Assembly: GCF_003334305.1 (NCBI RefSeq)
Contig: NZ_QOWS01000023.1
Reading direction: 5' to 3' (one strand)
Source: Escherichia coli
GTDB taxonomy: Bacteria > Pseudomonadota > Gammaproteobacteria > Enterobacterales > Enterobacteriaceae
DNA length: 64,000 bases
Notes under the pieces: generated by a model
Told to the model about the DNA's origin: nothing
What the model saw: the letters and a program-made list of their open reading frames with translations, nothing else
The model's database searches: none
Made by a program: the position numbers and the translations under genes
Shown here: piece after piece, positions 2,136-25,763 of the stretch
Numbering within the stretch: the stretch's first letter is position 1
Layout: every line of letters starts with the position of its first letter

Positions 2136-2753
2136 TTATTCTTCAATCGCTAACAATTGCAATGAACCACGGCTAAAATCCGCCAGCTTTGCGGAAAATT
2201 CAGCCACTTTCGCCGCCGGAAGCGCCACCCGCAGCAGAACGAATGCCTGATAATCACTGTTGATAATTTTGCCGTCACACTGCCCCAGCAACGCTTCAAT
2301 GCCGGTTAACTGATGATATTCACATTGCAAAGTATATTCGGTTAATGGCGTCTTGCGTTGGGTCGTTAGCTGGCGCAGCGCCTGATTCACGCCGCCGCCA
2401 TACGCTTTCACTAACCCACCGGTGCCAAGCAATATGCCGCCGTAGTAGCGCACTACCACAGCGGTAATTTCCCCGACGCCGCTGCCCATTAGCTGGGCGA
2501 GCATCGGTTTACCTGCCGTTCCCGCCGGCTCCCCGTCGTCAGAGAAACCCAGCTGTTGAGAATCATCCGGCGCACCCGCCACCCACGCCACGCAATGGTG
2601 GCGGGCATCGGGGTGTTCTGCCCGCACCGATTCAACAAACGCTTTCGCCGCCTCAACGCCATCGGTATGCGCCAACATCGTTATGAAGCGGCTCTTTTTG
2701 ATCTCTTCAACGACCGTGACCGGTGCCGCAGGAATTAACCAGCTTTCCATCAC
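2136..2753 (-). CDS. yigZ: IMPACT-family protein YigZ
   Basis: 205-aa ORF, 4-bp overlap with pepQ; conserved synteny. Confidence 0.85.
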
Positions 2754-4081
2754 GCCAGTTTCAGATCCCGGGTCATGTTTTCCACGTTGTTTTCGTGGAT
2801 CACCACGTTGTCTTCGATACGAATGCCGCCGAACGGTTTCAGTGCTTCAATTTTCTGCCAGTTGAAGTGCTTGCTGAACTGCCCTTCACGCCACGGTGCC
2901 AGCAGCGATTCAATGAAGTAGATACCCGGTTCGATGGTTAACACCATGCCCGGCTGGAGAATACGGGTGCAGCGCAGGTACGGATATTTTGCCGGTGCCG
3001 CGAGGTGCGTACCGCTATCATCCTGCATAAAACCGGCTACGTCATGCACCTGCAGGCCCAGCGGATGGCCAATACCGTGCGGCATAAACGGTCCGGTGAG
3101 ATCGTTTTCGACCATCGCTTCTTCACTCATATCGGTGATGATTTGATGTTTACGCAGCAGTTTGGCGATGCGCTGATGGAACTGGATGTGGTAATCCACA
3201 TAGCTGACGCCTGCTTTCATGGTAGCGATCAGCGCCAGTTGTTCATCATTTACGTCTTTCACCAGCTGTGCGTAGTCGTTGTCACTTTTTGCCGACCAGG
3301 TACGGGTCAGGTCAGCCGCATAGCCGTTATATTCGGCCCCGGCATCCAGCAGGAAGCTGCGCATCTCTTCCGGTGCCTGGTGGTCCAGTTTGGTGTAATG
3401 CAACACCGCAGCGTGTTCGTTGAGCGCCACAATGTTGCTGTAAGGTACGTCGGTATCACGATGACCGGTCGCGGTCAGATAGGCAATGTTGATATCGAAC
3501 TCGCTCATGCCAGAACGGAACGCTTCTTCTGCCGCGCGATGACCGTTGACCGCCATTTTCTGCGCTTCACGCATACAGGCCAGTTCGTACTCGGTTTTGA
3601 AGGAGCGGTAGTAATGCAGGTAGTCGATCACCCCTTTCGGGTTGATATTGCTGGCCTCAATACCCAGTTGCAGCGCACGTTCCGGCACCGGACCGATATA
3701 ACCGATATTCCCGCGCGCAGCAGGCAGCAGGCTACCAATGCCATCGGCTTTCGGCAGCGCGATCACTTCCACGTCTTCAGTCCAGAAAGAGGTCGGCAGC
3801 GGTTCGACGTTGTGCCAGTAATCAACCGGCAGATAGAACCACAGTTTCGGCTTGTTCACGCCATCCACCAGCAGCCAGCAGTTTGGCACCTGAGTTACCG
3901 GCACCCACGCTTTGAATTGCGGGTTCACTTTAAACGGATAGGGATGATCGTCGAGAAAAACGTTGAACAGTTCGCCGGAGTGAATAAGTAACGCATCCAG
4001 CTTGAAGCGCGCCAGCGCATCGCGAGTCCGTTCCTGTAAGGTAGCTATATGATTTTTATAGAGTGAGGCCAGTGATTCCAT
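2750..4081 (-). CDS. pepQ: Xaa-Pro dipeptidase (prolidase), 443 aa
   Basis: Full-length ORF recognised as PepQ (M24 peptidase). Confidence 0.93.
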
Positions 4082-19737: not shown

Positions 19738-21999
19738 TTACCCCAGACGCAAATTCTGCGCCGCCTGCACCATGTTCGCCAGTGCCGCGCGGGTTTCTGG
19801 CCAGCCGCGCGTTTTCAGGCCACAGTCTGGGTTGACCCACAGGCGCTCTGCCGGAATGCGTTTTGCCGCTTTCTTCAGCAGGGCTTCAATCCATTCCACG
19901 CTCGGTACGTTTGGCGAGTGAATGTCATAGACGCCTGGACCGATTTCATTCGGATAATCAAACTCTTCAAACGACTCCAGCAACTCCATGTCGGAACGCG
20001 AGGTTTCGATGGTGATGACGTCTGCATCCAGCGCCGCAATGGAATCCATGATGTCGTTGAACTCGCAATAACACATGTGAGTGTGGATTTGTGTGTCATC
20101 TTTCGCCACGGCGGCGTTGATACGGAAGGCCTCTACGCCCCACTGGAGATAGGCGTCCCAGTCGCTACGACGCAGTGGTAAACCTTCGCGCAGCGCCGGT
20201 TCGTCAATCTGGATGATACCAATCCCTGCCGCTTCCAGATCGGCCACCTCATCACGCAGCGCCAGCGCAATCTGTTTGGCGATGGTTTCACGGCTGACAT
20301 CTTCACGCGGGAACGACCAGCAGAGTATGGTCACCGGCCCCGTCAGCATCCCTTTCACCGGTTTGTCGGTCAGCGATTGCGCATACTTCGCCCACTCCAC
20401 GGTAATCGGTGCCGGGCGACTAACGTCACCAATAACAATCGGTGGCTTCACGCAGCGGGAACCGTAGCTCTGTACCCAACCGTTTTGCGTAAAGACAAAC
20501 CCGTCGAGGTGCTCGCCAAAGTATTCCACCATGTCATTACGCTCGGCCTCGCCATGTACCAGCACATCCAGTCCCAAACGTTCCTGTTCAACAATGGCCT
20601 GCCTGATATGTTCCGCAATGCCCGTGCGGTAGTTATTGGCGTCGAGATTGCCCTTTTTGAAATCCAGACGCAGGGTACGAATTTCCGTGGTTTGCGGGAA
20701 AGAACCAATCGTGGTGGTCGGCCACGCTGGCAGTTTAAAACGCGCACGCTGGGCTTCGGCACGCACTTCATAGACATTCGCACGCTGGCTGTCCTGGGCG
20801 GTGATCGCCGCCAGACGCTTTTCTACCGCCGGATTATGTACGCGGGTAGAGTGACGACGTGCCTGAATCGGGGCGCTCCACTCTGCCAGAGCTGCCGTGT
20901 CACCACTGTTCAGCGCATCGCGCAGCAGTGCCAGTTCATGGCATTTTTGTAGGGCGAAGGCAAACCAGCTTTTCACTTCTGCATCAAGACGCGTTTCCAC
21001 GCTCAGGTCGATGGGGCTGTGCAGCAACGAGCAGGAAGATGCCACCCACAAATCACGTTTGCCGACAATGTCCTTAATTTGCGCATATTTCTCGGTAAGA
21101 TCGGCGCGCCAGACGTTACGACCATTGATCAGACCCGCAGACAGCAACCAGTCAGAAGGCAGGCGCTTGTGCAGTTCAGCAACGTCATCTTTACCATGTA
21201 CGAGGTCAACATGCAGACCCTGAACAGGCAGCGCAGTAATCGTGTCGAGATTTGGCGTTACGCCTTCAAAATAGGTGGTCAGCAGCAGTTTCACCTGTCC
21301 CTGGAGCGCGTCGTAAGCGGGTTTGTATGCGTCCAGCCACGCCTGTGGTAGTTCCAGTACCAGCGCGGGTTCATCAATCTGTACCCACTCGATGCCGCGT
21401 TTCGCCAGTTCTGCCAGCACTTGCTGATAAACCGGCAGAATGTCGTTCAGCAGGCTAAGGCGGTCAAACTGTTCACCTTTCACTTTCCCCAGCCACAGGT
21501 AAGTAACCGGCCCCAGCAGCACAGGCTTAACGTTGTGGCCCAGCGCCAGCGCCTCGTCCACTTCCTCCAGCAGCTGCGTCCAGGTCAGTTTGAACTGTTG
21601 GCCTTTAACGAATTCCGGCACCATGTAGTGATAGTTGGTGTTAAACCATTTGGTCATTTCCGCTGCCGCCGCAGGTTCGCCAGTCGGCGCACGTCCACGA
21701 CCAATACGGAACAGGGTGTCGATATCTACCGAACCGTCTTTGTTCTGATGACGTGGCGGAACATTACCCAGCAGCAGACTGGTGGTCAGAACATGATCGT
21801 ACCAGGCAAAATCGCCCACCGGCAGCAGGTCGATACCCGCTTGCTTTTGTTGATCCCAGTGACGAGCACGCAGTTCACGCCCTACTGTCAGCAGTTCTTC
21901 ACGCGTGGAGTTCCCCGCCCAATAACTTTCTTGCGCTTTTTTCAGCTCGCGACGCAGGCCAACGCGAGGGAAACCGAGGGTGTGATTAAGAATTGTCAT
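19738..21999 (-). CDS. metE: Cobalamin-independent methionine synthase, 753 aa
   Basis: Full-length ORF recognised as MetE. Confidence 0.96.
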
Positions 22000-22029
22000 T
22001 ATATGCCCCTTATGGAATTTTTAGTATTT

Positions 22030-22053
22030 AGCCGTCCAGATGTTTACACATCC
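22030..22053. promoter_or_regulatory. Candidate tandem MetJ boxes in the metE-metR divergent promoter region
   Basis: Tandem 8-mers AGCCGTCC-AGATGTTT-ACACATCC loosely matching the AGACGTCT met-box repeat; weak. Confidence 0.35.
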
Positions 22054-22116
22054 ATAATTGGCGGTTACTGTATATTCCTCAAGCGCAAATTATTCATGCC
22101 GAAGTGAAGGACTTTC

Positions 22117-23070
22117 ATGATCGAAGTAAAACACCTGAAAACGCTACAAGCGTTGCGGAACTGCGGCTCTCTCGCAGCCGCTGCGGCGACGTTGCATCAG
22201 ACGCAATCCGCCCTGTCTCACCAGTTTAGCGATCTGGAACAACGCCTTGGCTTCCGGCTATTTGTGCGTAAGAGCCAGCCGCTACGCTTTACACCGCAGG
22301 GAGAAATCCTGTTGCAACTGGCAAACCAGGTGCTGCCGCAAATTAGCCAGGCACTGCAAGCCTGCAATGAACCGCAGCAGACGCGTCTGCGCATTGCCAT
22401 TGAGTGCCATAGCTGTATTCAGTGGCTGACGCCCGCGTTAGAAAATTTCCATAAGAACTGGCCGCAGGTAGAGATGGATTTTAAATCGGGCGTGACGTTT
22501 GACCCGCAGCCCGCGTTGCAACAGGGCGAGCTGGATCTGGTGATGACCTCCGATATCCTGCCGCGCAGTGGCCTGCATTATTCGCCGATGTTCGACTATG
22601 AAGTGCGTCTGGTGTTAGCACCTGACCATCCACTGGCGGCGAAAACGCGAATTACACCGGAAGATCTCGCCAGCGAGACGCTGTTGATTTATCCGGTGCA
22701 GCGTAGTCGACTGGATGTCTGGCGGCATTTTCTTCAGCCGGCAGGCGTCAGCCCGTCACTGAAAAGCGTCGATAACACCTTATTGTTGATTCAGATGGTT
22801 GCCGCGCGGATGGGTATTGCCGCGCTACCGCATTGGGTAGTAGAGAGTTTTGAGCGCCAGGGTCTGGTGGTGACCAAAACCCTGGGCGAAGGCTTGTGGA
22901 GCCGACTGTACGCCGCCGTGCGCGATGGCGAGCAGCGTCAGCCAGTTACGGAAGCGTTTATTCGCTCAGCGCGCAATCACGCCTGCGATCATCTGCCGTT
23001 TGTGAAGAGCGCGGAGCGACCCACTTACGATGCACCCACAGTGAGGCCAGGATCACCAGCGCGCCTGTAA
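22117..23070 (+). CDS. metR: LysR-type regulator MetR, 317 aa
   Basis: Full-length ORF with N-terminal HTH; divergent from metE. Confidence 0.95.
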
Positions 23071-23857
23071 TAAACGTTGGCCAGTGCGGCTGTTGGTGCC
23101 AGATAGCCAGGTTTACCAGCAGCCCTGCCGGAACGTGCATATTATTCATAATGCCCAGCGTTCCGGCGTCCACCTGCGTCGCGCCGTAGTTCCACATAAA
23201 GTAGCCAATCCCGGAAGCCACCACGCCAAGAAACACCAGAATGCCCCATTGCAGCGTGGTTTGCGGCATTTTCTGCGCATTTCCCAGCAAGAACCATGCA
23301 ATTACCGCCACCAGGAACGCGCCAAGATAGAACCACGCAAAGGCGTTATGCTGCGGCATCGGGCGAGTTTCCATCAGGCGTTTGTAACCCACCATGCCGA
23401 TGGCAAAAGTGATATTGGAGAGTTGCACCAGCAACAAGCCAGTCCAGAAATGGTCGGTGACCTGATCATAGCGAATAATCCCGGCACCAATCACCGCCAA
23501 CAAGGCACTAAAAGCATATCCCCAGCGCAGACGGCGCTTACTCATGATGTCATAAATCAGCGTGATGTAGAGCGGCGTCAGTACGGTGAACAGCAGCAGT
23601 TCGGAAACCGTCAGATAGAGATAAGCGCGGAAACTCAGCATATACATCACGCCAAGCTGCATCGCGCCCACCAGCATATACAGGCCGACTGTTTTCAGGC
23701 TATTGCCACGGGTACGCAGAAACGGCAGAAAAACGAGTGCCGCCAGGCCAACGCGCACCAGCACCGCAAAATAGCTATCGACGTGCCCCGCAAGGTACTC
23801 GCCATAAAAGCTAAAGGAGAAGGCCCACAGAATCGTGGTGATGATAAGTAGCGCCAC
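22958..23857 (-). CDS. yigM: DMT-family inner membrane transporter YigM (biotin transporter BioP), 299 aa
   Basis: Polytopic membrane ORF; its 3' end overlaps the metR 3' end by 113 bp. Confidence 0.88.
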
Positions 23858-23932
23858 AATGGAAAACTCTTTGATTAACGAGTATCCATTGTAGCGAAGT
23901 ATCAGGTTGACAACTGACCAAATAAAGAACGA

Positions 23933-24733
23933 TTACGATAAATAGAGTTTACGCAGATAATGCGGCACCGCGTCGTCGGCATTAGTACCAATCACTTCCA
24001 GCTCGGGATGAAGGTCTTTCAGACGCTGGTGCGCACTGCCCATAATGCAGCCTTTCCCCGCCATCGACAGCATTTCGGCATCGTTCATCCCGTCACCAAA
24101 CGCAATACAATCCTTCAGGCTGTAGCCCAGTTTCTTCGCCACCGCTTCCAGCGCATGGCCTTTCGACACGCCGCCCGCCATCACTTCCAGACAGGTTAAG
24201 GTAGAGAAACTGACGTTGACGCGATCGCCCCAGCGAGCGTTAATCGCCTGCTCCAGCGGCAGCAGTTGTTCATGGGAATCGCAGGTGAAAAACACTTTGC
24301 TGACGCCTTCCGGCTCCAGTAATCCAGGCTCATACAGCGCATATTTGAACACCGCTTCTTTAAAAAAGCGCATCTCTTCCGGGCGATGGCGATTCATAAA
24401 CCATTCGTCGTCGCGATAAACGTTAGTAATGATGTCCGGATTGTCGTTGACTACGCCAAACAGATCGCTGGCAATGTCGCGATCCAGGTTATGAGCAAAA
24501 ATCAGATTACCATCCAGATCGTGAACGCGCGCACCATTGGAGGTAATCATGTAAGACTTAATCTCCAGATTATCGCGAATTTGCCCCACATCAACGTGGT
24601 GACGACCGGTCGCAAACACAAAGTTGATGCCGCGCGCGGTGAGCAGCTTCAGAGTTTCTTTGGCGTAAGGGGATAACGTATGGTCGGGAGAAAGTAACGT
24701 GCCATCTAAATCAGACGCAACAACCTGGTACAT
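23933..24733 (-). CDS. yigL: HAD-superfamily (Cof-like) sugar phosphatase YigL, 266 aa
   Basis: ORF track 23933-24859; start at internal ATG giving MYQVVASDLDGTLL... (HAD motif I DLDGTL). Confidence 0.88.
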   Translation of the reverse strand: MYQVVASDLDGTLLSPDHTLSPYAKETLKLLTARGINFVFATGRHHVDVGQIRDNLEIKSYMITSNGARVHDLDGNLIFAHNLDRDIASDLFGVVNDNPDIITNVYRDDEWFMNRHRPEEMRFFKEAVFKYALYEPGLLEPEGVSKVFFTCDSHEQLLPLEQAINARWGDRVNVSFSTLTCLEVMAGGVSKGHALEAVAKKLGYSLKDCIAFGDGMNDAEMLSMAGKGCIMGSAHQRLKDLHPELEVIGTNADDAVPHYLRKLYLS

Positions 24734-24740
24734 AAGAAAT

Positions 24741-25763
24741 TTAAACCTCTGTAGAGCGGTTTCCGCTGGGTGAGTTATGCCTGTTGAAAAAATCAACAAT
24801 GGCGTGGAGCGCGACTGAGCGCATTGCGTCCTTTTCAAAAAGGATCTCATGGTAAGCACCTTTAATTACCAACGGTCGTCCTCCTTCGACAGGATGGCCC
24901 GCGGCGGTGCGGAGTTCACAAAAACGGTCATGCATGCGGTTATCCACCACGCGTTCCTCTTCAGCTTGTAAGAGAAGCGTTGGCGTGGCGTCATCACCCG
25001 CACCGGCTAACACCTGTTCGCCAGCCAGAATACTTTCGCGTACCCAATGGTAGGTCGGCCCACCGACGCGAATCGTTGGGTCATCAGCATAGAAGCGTAA
25101 GTTACGTCGATATCGCTGTCTGCTGTGGGTCAGTACGTTGATAGCAAACGGCAACGCGCGCCAGCGCCCGGTGCCTATTGCATAGCCATCACGGAAACGT
25201 GGATGCGCTTCGGCCCAGTTGAGGATCTGCCGTGCCATAAATGACGGCATACGAATCACGATCCCAAACATTGGCGCAGTTAGCGCAATGGCGTCACATA
25301 CACCTGGATGGCGTTGCAGAAATAATGTGGAGATCGCACCGCCCATCGAATGTGCCAGTATATAGCGTTTACGCCACGGACCGGGCTGAACCTCCTGCTG
25401 CCAGAATGCCGCCAGATCATCAACATAATCATTAAAGCGATTAACATGCCCGAGATGCGGATCGGCTAACAGGCGACCGGAACGTCCCTGCCCGCGATGG
25501 TCGATGATTAAGACATCAAACCCCAAATGGAACAGGTCATAGGCCAGTTCCGCATATTTTACGTAGCTCTCAATACGCCCCGGGCAGATGACTACCACCC
25601 GGTCATGGTGCTGTGCGCGAAAACGGACAAAGCGCACCGGAATGTCATCCACACCAGTAAACTCTGCTTCATCACGCTGACGCCAGAAATCAGTCAGCGG
25701 TCCCATGGTAAAAGCAGCAAACGCGTTTTCTCTTGTTTCCCAGTCTTTTTGCTGCTGAAACAT
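24741..25763 (-). CDS. pldB: Lysophospholipase L2, 340 aa
   Basis: Full-length alpha/beta hydrolase (GHSMGG motif). Confidence 0.93.
   Translation of the reverse strand: MFQQQKDWETRENAFAAFTMGPLTDFWRQRDEAEFTGVDDIPVRFVRFRAQHHDRVVVICPGRIESYVKYAELAYDLFHLGFDVLIIDHRGQGRSGRLLADPHLGHVNRFNDYVDDLAAFWQQEVQPGPWRKRYILAHSMGGAISTLFLQRHPGVCDAIALTAPMFGIVIRMPSFMARQILNWAEAHPRFRDGYAIGTGRWRALPFAINVLTHSRQRYRRNLRFYADDPTIRVGGPTYHWVRESILAGEQVLAGAGDDATPTLLLQAEEERVVDNRMHDRFCELRTAAGHPVEGGRPLVIKGAYHEILFEKDAMRSVALHAIVDFFNRHNSPSGNRSTEV

Follow-up and report, generated by a model that had tools for sequence, protein, structure and literature searches.

The convergent genes metR and yigM (bioP) of Escherichia coli share 113 bp of coding sequence at their 3' ends, and this ancient, genuine overlap has probably persisted passively and not as a regulatory device. 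The window, that is, the whole stretch of 64,000 nucleotides of E. coli DNA that was analysed, carries metR, which encodes the LysR-type regulator of metE and metH (317 residues), at positions 22117–23070 on the plus strand, and yigM, which encodes a biotin transporter of the EamA/DMT family (299 residues), at positions 22958–23857 on the minus strand. Both assignments come from the list of open reading frames and from the RefSeq annotation of identical DNA, where yigM is entered as "bioP: biotin transporter". The genes meet tail to tail, so that positions 22958–23070 are coding on both strands, with the metR stop codon (23068–23070) lying inside yigM and the yigM stop codon (22958–22960) lying inside metR.

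The initial annotation had described this convergent coding overlap, and the open reading frame coordinates and the RefSeq annotation agree on it. In a 100% identical E. coli genome the RefSeq/PGAP annotation places metR at 1618–2571 on the plus strand and bioP at 2459–3358 on the minus strand, and in the annotation of K-12 MG1655 bioP lies at 4011076–4011975 (+) and metR at 4011863–4012816 (−), the overlap being identical in both cases. Using a 2-kb query around the site, the locus was found in every one of the 5426 complete E. coli genomes, with 95–100% identity. An earlier in-frame stop in either gene had been named as the observation that would remove the overlap; the annotated stops are the first in-frame stops of both genes, the choice of start codon has no bearing on them, and homology fixes both frames, which rules such an earlier stop out. 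Within its surroundings the overlap stands out, as there are nine convergent pairs of open reading frames in the window and, besides metR/yigM, just one of them overlaps, by 4 bp. It is already known, being annotated in RefSeq and having been remarked on by Côté et al. (2016).

Both metR and yigM are real, functional genes. Residues 1–92 of MetR match the structure of the E. coli DNA-binding domain (PDB 5FO5), and the regulatory domain of MetR from N. meningitidis (4AB5) aligns to residues 87–296, so that fold homology ends at residue 296. Pfam family PF00892 (EamA) is present in homologues of YigM, and the AlphaFold model of YigM is a 10-helix transporter with a mean pLDDT of 93.7; biotin transport as the function of YigM/BioP has been reported by Côté et al. 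(2016) and Finkenwirth et al. (2013). The pLDDT of the YigM model falls from >90 to ~75 in its final 20 residues, the tail being modelled as a helical extension and not as disorder, and alignments with remote homologues of YigM extend only to about residue 275–283.

Whether other enterobacteria share the overlap, a question raised with the initial annotation, was answered in the affirmative by a scan of one genome per species that covered 80 Enterobacteriaceae loci, with YigM identity ranging from 100% down to 81% and with genera including Escherichia, Citrobacter, Salmonella, Klebsiella, Enterobacter, Kluyvera, Kosakonia, Raoultella and Siccibacter. In all 80 of the 80 species metR is convergent with yigM and overlaps it in the same phase, and the two-gene block of 1741 bp has zero indels in the 80 loci. 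Beyond the Enterobacteriaceae the overlap measures 113 bp in Yersinia kristensenii, 98 bp in Dickeya solani and 95 bp in both Rahnella and Pectobacterium, and in these four genera yigM stops at the same MetR Phe-Ile codons. The overlap is old and extends to members of three or more families within Enterobacterales. A family-level phylogeny of the order was reportedly set out by Adeolu et al. in 2016 and serves here as the basis for placing gain and loss; on that phylogeny, the overlap would be ancestral to Enterobacteriaceae, Erwiniaceae, Pectobacteriaceae and Yersiniaceae and would have been lost at least two times. The YigM homologues of Vibrio, of Microbulbifer and of loci L094 and L095 do not lie beside metR and are uninformative on the ancestral state. 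One locus (L093), which had the appearance of a relative with 30% GC that keeps the overlap, was rejected as an artefact of a C-to-T converted (bisulfite-like) assembly.

The phase of the overlap places position 1 of the metR codons opposite position 1 of the yigM codons, metR position 2 opposite yigM position 3, and metR position 3 opposite yigM position 2. Because each third position faces a second position of the partner, no site is synonymous in both genes. Variation per site was determined over 81 sequences, namely the 80 Enterobacteriaceae loci plus the window, and it divides the overlap into three parts. From 22958 to about 23010 the variable sites are the third positions of metR, which are the second positions of yigM, and in this part (22958–23010) MetR residues 281–298 are under purifying selection and the YigM tail, residues 284–299, takes amino acid changes. 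At the other end, in 23024–23070, the variable sites are the third positions of yigM, which are the second positions of metR; there YigM residues 263–278, which form the end of the last transmembrane helix (helix 10), are under purifying selection and the MetR tail, residues 303–317, takes amino acid changes. Between these two parts lies a stretch of 13 nt, GCGGAGCGACCCA at 23011–23023, in which MetR A299-E-R-P302 stands opposite YigM W279-V-A-P-R283. This stretch is almost invariant, with an entropy of 0 at 11 of its 13 sites in the 81 sequences, third positions of both genes included, and it is the only truly dual-constrained coding segment of the overlap. Variation thus switches from the third positions of metR to those of yigM at about 23010–23023, and the structure alignments of MetR, together with the model confidence of YigM and the alignments of its remote homologues, place the folded ends of both proteins at the same point.

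Outside the 13-nt stretch, the two tails differ sharply in variability from the proteins to which they belong. Entropy at second codon positions is 1.07 in the MetR tail versus 0.085 in the rest of metR, and 0.69 in the YigM tail versus 0.12 in the rest of yigM, so that second positions are 6 to 12 times as variable in the tails as in the gene bodies. Freely varying residues are 303, 304, 306, 309, 310, 312 and 315–317 in the MetR tail and 285, 288–290, 292 and 294 in the YigM tail. Shorter forms also occur naturally: YigM variants of 284/285 residues make up clusters of 42 and 66 sequences, Salmonella Gaminara among them, and MetR ends at codon 313 in two species. These patterns suggest that both tails are largely, perhaps not entirely, free-riding, with a weak residual constraint being possible.

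The strength of this residual constraint bears on an alternative in which the overlap is a case of true dual coding, with both tails functional and the whole 113 bp kept by selection on both frames. Four-fold sites were compared at codons with a conserved amino acid. Those of metR opposite the YigM tail have an entropy of 0.81 versus 1.13 elsewhere in the gene, a mild reduction in favour of dual coding that puts the mean of this region at the 4.6th percentile of windows of the same size, whereas those of yigM opposite the MetR tail vary just as they do elsewhere in yigM (1.24 versus 1.22). Several single synonymous sites are frozen, which also speaks for function in the tails: V268 of yigM is GTG in 78 of 80 sequences, where GTT or GTC would cut MetR short at codon 313; H276 of yigM is CAT in 80 of 81, which preserves D305 of MetR; and I282 of metR is ATT in 80 of 80, which preserves E299 of YigM, a residue that is itself invariant. 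To these may be added the helical model of the YigM tail at its pLDDT of ~75. On the other hand, synonymous variation is not reduced in both frames over the overlap as a whole, 23011–23023 being frozen in both, so that just 13 nt are invariant in the two frames, and most tail residues are free to vary. Truncated or replaced tails are moreover found in nature in both proteins, with YigM of 284/285 residues, or of 282–287 residues in Serratia and Erwiniaceae, and MetR of 307–313 residues. Dual coding across the full overlap is for these reasons unlikely.

The stop codons show how the length of a passively persisting overlap would be set. The TAA stop of yigM (22958–22960, minus strand) is the antisense of MetR F281 (TTT) and of the first base of I282 (ATT), residues that are conserved at 100% and 99%, respectively. 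On the plus strand, the TAA stop of metR (23068–23070) is followed by a second in-frame TAA (23071–23073), and the two are antisense to YigM F262-I263-T264 (TTT ATT ACA). A stop in this antisense phase requires that the partner has a codon NTT, NTC or NCT followed by a codon starting with A. Within MetR residues 283–298 there is a single dicodon, V296-K297, that is able to yield an earlier yigM stop by synonymous change. In 80 of the 81 sequences yigM terminates at codon 300, and in the one exception, the short variant L033, its stop is at codon 285 and falls exactly at MetR V296-K297. For metR, termination is at codon 318 in 72 of the 81 sequences, at codon 319 in 7 and at codon 313 in 2, and the resulting overlap measures 113 bp in 71 of these sequences, 116 bp in 7, 98 bp in 2 and 68 bp in 1. 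The length of 113 bp is therefore conserved because the conserved amino acids of the partner fix the stops, as a by-product and without selection on the overlap itself. Over the 53 long open reading frames of the window, the stop density in this antisense phase is 0.0445 per codon, stop-free runs have a median of 14 and a mean of 20.5 codons, and the probability of a run of 15 or more codons without a stop is 0.49. Tails of 15–19 codons are ordinary, as chance gives in this phase.

In the best-supported mechanism for the passive persistence of the overlap, two unrelated functional genes lie side by side with no spacer, the constrained ends of their proteins meeting head-on within about 13 nt (23011–23023). 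Past this stretch each ribosome reads through the antisense of the partner's constrained codons until yigM stops opposite MetR Phe281-Ile282 and metR stops opposite YigM Ile263-Thr264, where conserved codons happen to spell a stop. Reading on in this way lengthens the C-terminus of MetR by about 15 residues and that of YigM by 16–19 residues, the sequence of each tail being dictated by the partner. Since there is no room for an intergenic terminator, transcription would probably be ended by Rho once the ribosome is released, as published data show for the yigM strand and as presumably holds for the metR strand as well. Each transcript would run antisense into the other gene, most likely as tolerated noise between two weakly expressed genes.

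In a scan of 21900–24100 for intrinsic terminators none was found in or near the overlap, and the sole terminator-like match lies inside metR at 22671. Folding of the single sequence gave hairpins at about 22846–22885 (minus strand) and at about 23129–23168 (plus strand), both without a U-tract. RNAalifold proposed a possible stem-loop in the yigM transcript at 22902–22945 (minus strand), 13–56 nt after the stop and also without a U-tract, in which 94% of cells are paired in 26 sequences and double changes occur at only 2 pairs. This segment is also conserved MetR coding DNA, and its covariation is no better than expected for such DNA; on the metR side the RNAalifold consensus is weak. A search of 21500–24500 against Rfam gave no matches. 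With regard to composition, the RNA after both stops is rich in C and poor in G: the C/G ratio is 1.47 in the 200 nt after the yigM stop and reaches up to 1.76 in 78-nt windows after the metR stop.

Evidence of termination on the yigM strand is available from Adams et al. (2021; eLife, PMC7815308), whose Rho termination regions include one that peaks at MG1655 4011704 (+) and was assigned to the interior of yigM, with read counts going from 98 upstream to 21 downstream without bicyclomycin and from 300 to 326 with bicyclomycin (Rho score 5.07, p = 1.3e-12). Converted by way of the annotation, this peak corresponds to position 23229 on the yigM-sense (minus) strand, in a region that spans the 3' end of yigM. 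Because the mapping used 800-nt windows, of which the downstream one comprises the last 271 nt of yigM plus 529 nt past its stop and antisense to metR, position 23229 marks a region and not a site. The bicyclomycin data indicate that transcription of the yigM strand is ended by Rho around the 3' end of the gene and invades metR when Rho is blocked. For this strand the features of a Rho-dependent terminator are seen in the published bicyclomycin data as well as in the composition, and for the metR strand they are seen in the composition, which suggests that termination there may be Rho-dependent too. No 3' ends are listed for metR or yigM among the curated Term-seq 3' ends of the same study (PMC7815308). 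Where both mRNAs are produced at full length, it is a logical necessity that they be antisense to each other over 113 nt or more, and mutual antisense transcripts are likely. The statement in the initial annotation that each transcript is antisense to the 3' coding region of its partner thus follows from the overlap for full-length mRNAs, and no intrinsic terminator intervenes.

Biotin synthesis consumes S-adenosylmethionine, and this loose metabolic link between the two genes has some weight for a second alternative, in which transcriptional interference or duplex RNA cleaved by RNase III links the expression of MetR and BioP and thereby conserves the overlap. The initial annotation had seen scope for such co-regulation. 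Its structural part, the overlap, stands; the proposed interference or RNase III-mediated co-regulation is unsupported. The genes are absent from the listed rows of tables of double-stranded RNA, the overlap has been lost in Serratia and Erwiniaceae, and the tails are weakly constrained. An intrinsic terminator is indeed absent between the genes, antisense RNA can form, given that the Rho-limited yigM strand reads into metR upon inhibition of Rho, and the overlap is kept in members of at least three families. This conservation is, however, already explained by the conserved codons of the partner, which fix the stops, and the overlap has been resolved in Serratia, Pantoea, Paramixta and Mixta. 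Neither metR nor yigM is named among the listed rows of the supplementary tables of a p19 dsRNA-capture study or in the SMRT-Cappable-seq tables, no Rfam family matches the region, and a literature search found no publication that reports such regulation between metR and bioP. We consider coupling of this kind decidedly improbable, and the overlap itself would appear to have no regulatory role.

A more specific form of the idea, very doubtful in our estimation, is that loss of a terminator and the head-on arrangement of the gene ends created a conserved antisense link that is modulated by Rho or RNase III. Under such a link high transcription of metR during methionine limitation would dampen bioP, and the reverse, and selection for the link would account for the few synonymous sites that are frozen and for conservation throughout the family. 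If functional, it would join methionine/SAM regulation to biotin uptake; nothing yet suggests that it does.

Several lineages lack the overlap. Pantoea sp. B65 and Paramixta manurensis have a DUF1456 gene between metR and yigM, Mixta calida has an open reading frame of 82 residues in this place, and in Serratia liquefaciens metR (316 residues) and yigM (287 residues) are separated by 32 bp. YigM measures 282–287 residues in Serratia and in these three Erwiniaceae. The Serratia gap contains a 10-bp GC-rich hairpin followed by GTTTATTT, and it scored as terminator-like on the metR strand only. A complementary T-rich run for the yigM strand could be read by eye.

The tail of Serratia MetR (RPSAGVASVK...) is homologous to that of Rahnella (RPNAGVPTVR), which is of the overlapping type. 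Compared with the Rahnella segment, the MetR tail of Serratia matches at 19 of 27 nt, a score reached by 1 of 11,820 placements, and the antisense of Serratia yigM matches the same segment at 22 of 27 nt. As both stretches match the one Rahnella segment, Serratia carries two copies of the shared segment. These copies agree with one another at 14 of 27 nt, and the differences between them add up to those that each has from the Rahnella segment. The duplication is not significant by local DNA alignment under strict scoring and is significant by ungapped comparison at homologous codons. These sequences are most simply explained by an ancestor with the overlap in which a small tandem duplication set the genes apart, a terminator lying between the two copies of the shared segment. 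Serratia would then show how such an overlap can be undone.

Set against known systems, metR/yigM belongs to an established class, that of conserved convergent gene overlaps, and its mechanism is ordinary. Overlaps of this class reportedly form by extension of a 3' end once a stop or spacer has been lost (Rogozin et al., 2002). Like other members of the class, metR/yigM has its genes on opposite strands with shared 3' ends, is conserved among orthologues, and has extensions that are weakly constrained relative to the gene bodies; at 113 bp it is longer, and it is more widely conserved, than most. According to Pallejà et al. (2008; PMC2478687), only the convergent orientation permits real overlaps of >60 bp, and 338 genomes contained 54 plausible convergent overlaps of >60 bp, mostly conserved among close relatives only. 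Although the same authors (PMC2478687) found most annotated prokaryotic overlaps of >60 bp to be mispredicted, 124 of 178 convergent ones included, there is practically no chance that metR/yigM is likewise an artefact in which one reading frame does not reach its annotated stop through frameshift, sequencing error or over-long prediction, because stop positions are independent of gene prediction, the same ends recur without indels in 80 species and thousands of E. coli genomes, homology fixes both frames to within a few codons of the junction, and deletion of metR inactivates YigM, as it should if the yigM frame runs on into metR.

The overlap shares with excludons and other regulation by overlapping 3' UTRs (PMC7154746) complementary 3' RNA without an effective terminator, with Rho limiting the yigM strand. 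It differs from them in that its complementary region is coding in both directions, and in that metR/yigM is not known to show a reciprocal effect on expression, RNase III dependence or a dsRNA signal. In comparison with bidirectional intrinsic terminators, the Serratia pair has a hairpin and a T-run in its gap, whereas E. coli and the other overlapping species have neither the element nor the space for it. As in the overprinted antisense genes laoB and asa of EHEC (PMC5810103, PMC6294744), the tails are imposed by the constrained codons of the partner; unlike in those cases, no new gene has arisen, the products being short C-terminal extensions of two old genes under little selection of their own. 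If the preferred reading of passive persistence is right, metR-bioP would be a clear textbook case of a long convergent overlap that persists in this way, with the conserved amino acids of the partner fixing the stops. What novelty remains is to be found in the division of the overlap into three parts, in stops that the partner fixes and in the duplication seen in Serratia.

The overlap has a practical consequence for the interpretation of mutants. The Keio design reportedly leaves a gene its start codon and its last 6 codons; applied to metR, it would take out positions 22120–23049 and with them YigM residues 270–299. Loss of the end of the last transmembrane helix of YigM would explain, without any regulatory link, the phenotype of the metR deletion described by Côté et al. 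(2016), who found it to be synthetic-lethal with bioA and sensitive to an inhibitor of BioA through disruption of yigM. A clean deletion of metR cuts the end of the last helix of BioP, just as a deletion of bioP cuts the end of MetR, and, as Côté et al. (2016) demonstrated in the case of biotin uptake, phenotypes of the Keio strains can in this way be assigned to the wrong gene.

The overlapping 3' ends of metR (22117–23070, plus strand) and yigM, also named bioP (22958–23857, minus strand), are replaced in two groups of relatives by an arrangement in which the genes lie apart. In Serratia liquefaciens the gap between them measures 32 bp (3452–3483 of locus L088) and contains the hairpin GGGCAGCTCGCGCTTGGGCTGCCC, with AAATATCA in front of it and GTTTATTT after it. 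From their sequence, hairpin and flanks together look like a bidirectional intrinsic terminator. No comparable hairpin element was found in the species in which metR and yigM overlap. In the Erwiniaceae, a gene occupies the exact place that the metR/yigM overlap holds in other families. It is a DUF1456 gene in Pantoea sp. B65 (L091, 3551–4027) and in Paramixta manurensis (L096, 3537–4016), and an 82-aa ORF in Mixta calida (L089, 3612–3860). The insertion point is the junction of the constrained ends of the MetR and YigM proteins (23011–23023 in the window).

On the minus strand of the window, a stem of 14–16 bp (22902–22945) starts 13 nt past the yigM stop codon. It lacks a U-tract, and its pairing is kept in 94% of cells (26 species); it sits within highly conserved MetR codons, at residues ~262–277. 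It may be a 3'-end-protecting structure.

At the other end of yigM, the ORF coordinates leave a 75-bp spacer to yigL (23858–23932, minus strand), in which a scan detected neither a terminator-like site nor a consensus promoter. The only promoter-like candidate seen by eye between the two genes is TTGTCA...TACAAT, a weak pair whose two elements are closely spaced. Partial co-transcription of yigM with pldB-yigL may occur. The yigL mRNA is regulated by SgrS, and such co-transcription would tie yigM transcription to this regulated message.

The mechanical ORF list places yigL at 23933–24859 on the minus strand, with a GTG start at 24859 and a length of 308 aa, which would give a 119-bp overlap with pldB (24741–25763). 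In RefSeq the start is at 24733 (266 aa) and this overlap is absent. Overlaps in the ORF track that depend on a start codon are unreliable; the metR-yigM overlap, unlike that of yigL and pldB, rests on stop codons only.

In the Logan assembly SRR18107612 (L093), of 30% GC, the yigL-yigM-metR-metE block is present but shows C-to-T changes throughout, which replace A by V, T by I and Q by a stop, among others. Its sequence looks like an assembly of bisulfite-converted reads, and L093 is not a true low-GC relative. In a Dickeya solani-like contig (L083, Logan SRR11696187), the yigM homologue departs from the E. coli reading frame at ~1150–1300 (GGTGVSWRGGVGPGLFHVELWRHPGG...) and then regains it, through a pair of indels that compensate each other or through a fault in the assembly. 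This internal stretch lowers the apparent identity to 57%.

In the complete genome of E. coli strain Z135-6 (NZ_CP159632.1; L002, 2618–4437), the 3' parts of metR and bioP are both absent. In their place lies ~1.1 kb with a hypothetical gene of 636 nt, and the annotation lists metR and bioP as partial pseudogenes. Z135-6 is a natural E. coli strain without intact metR or bioP.
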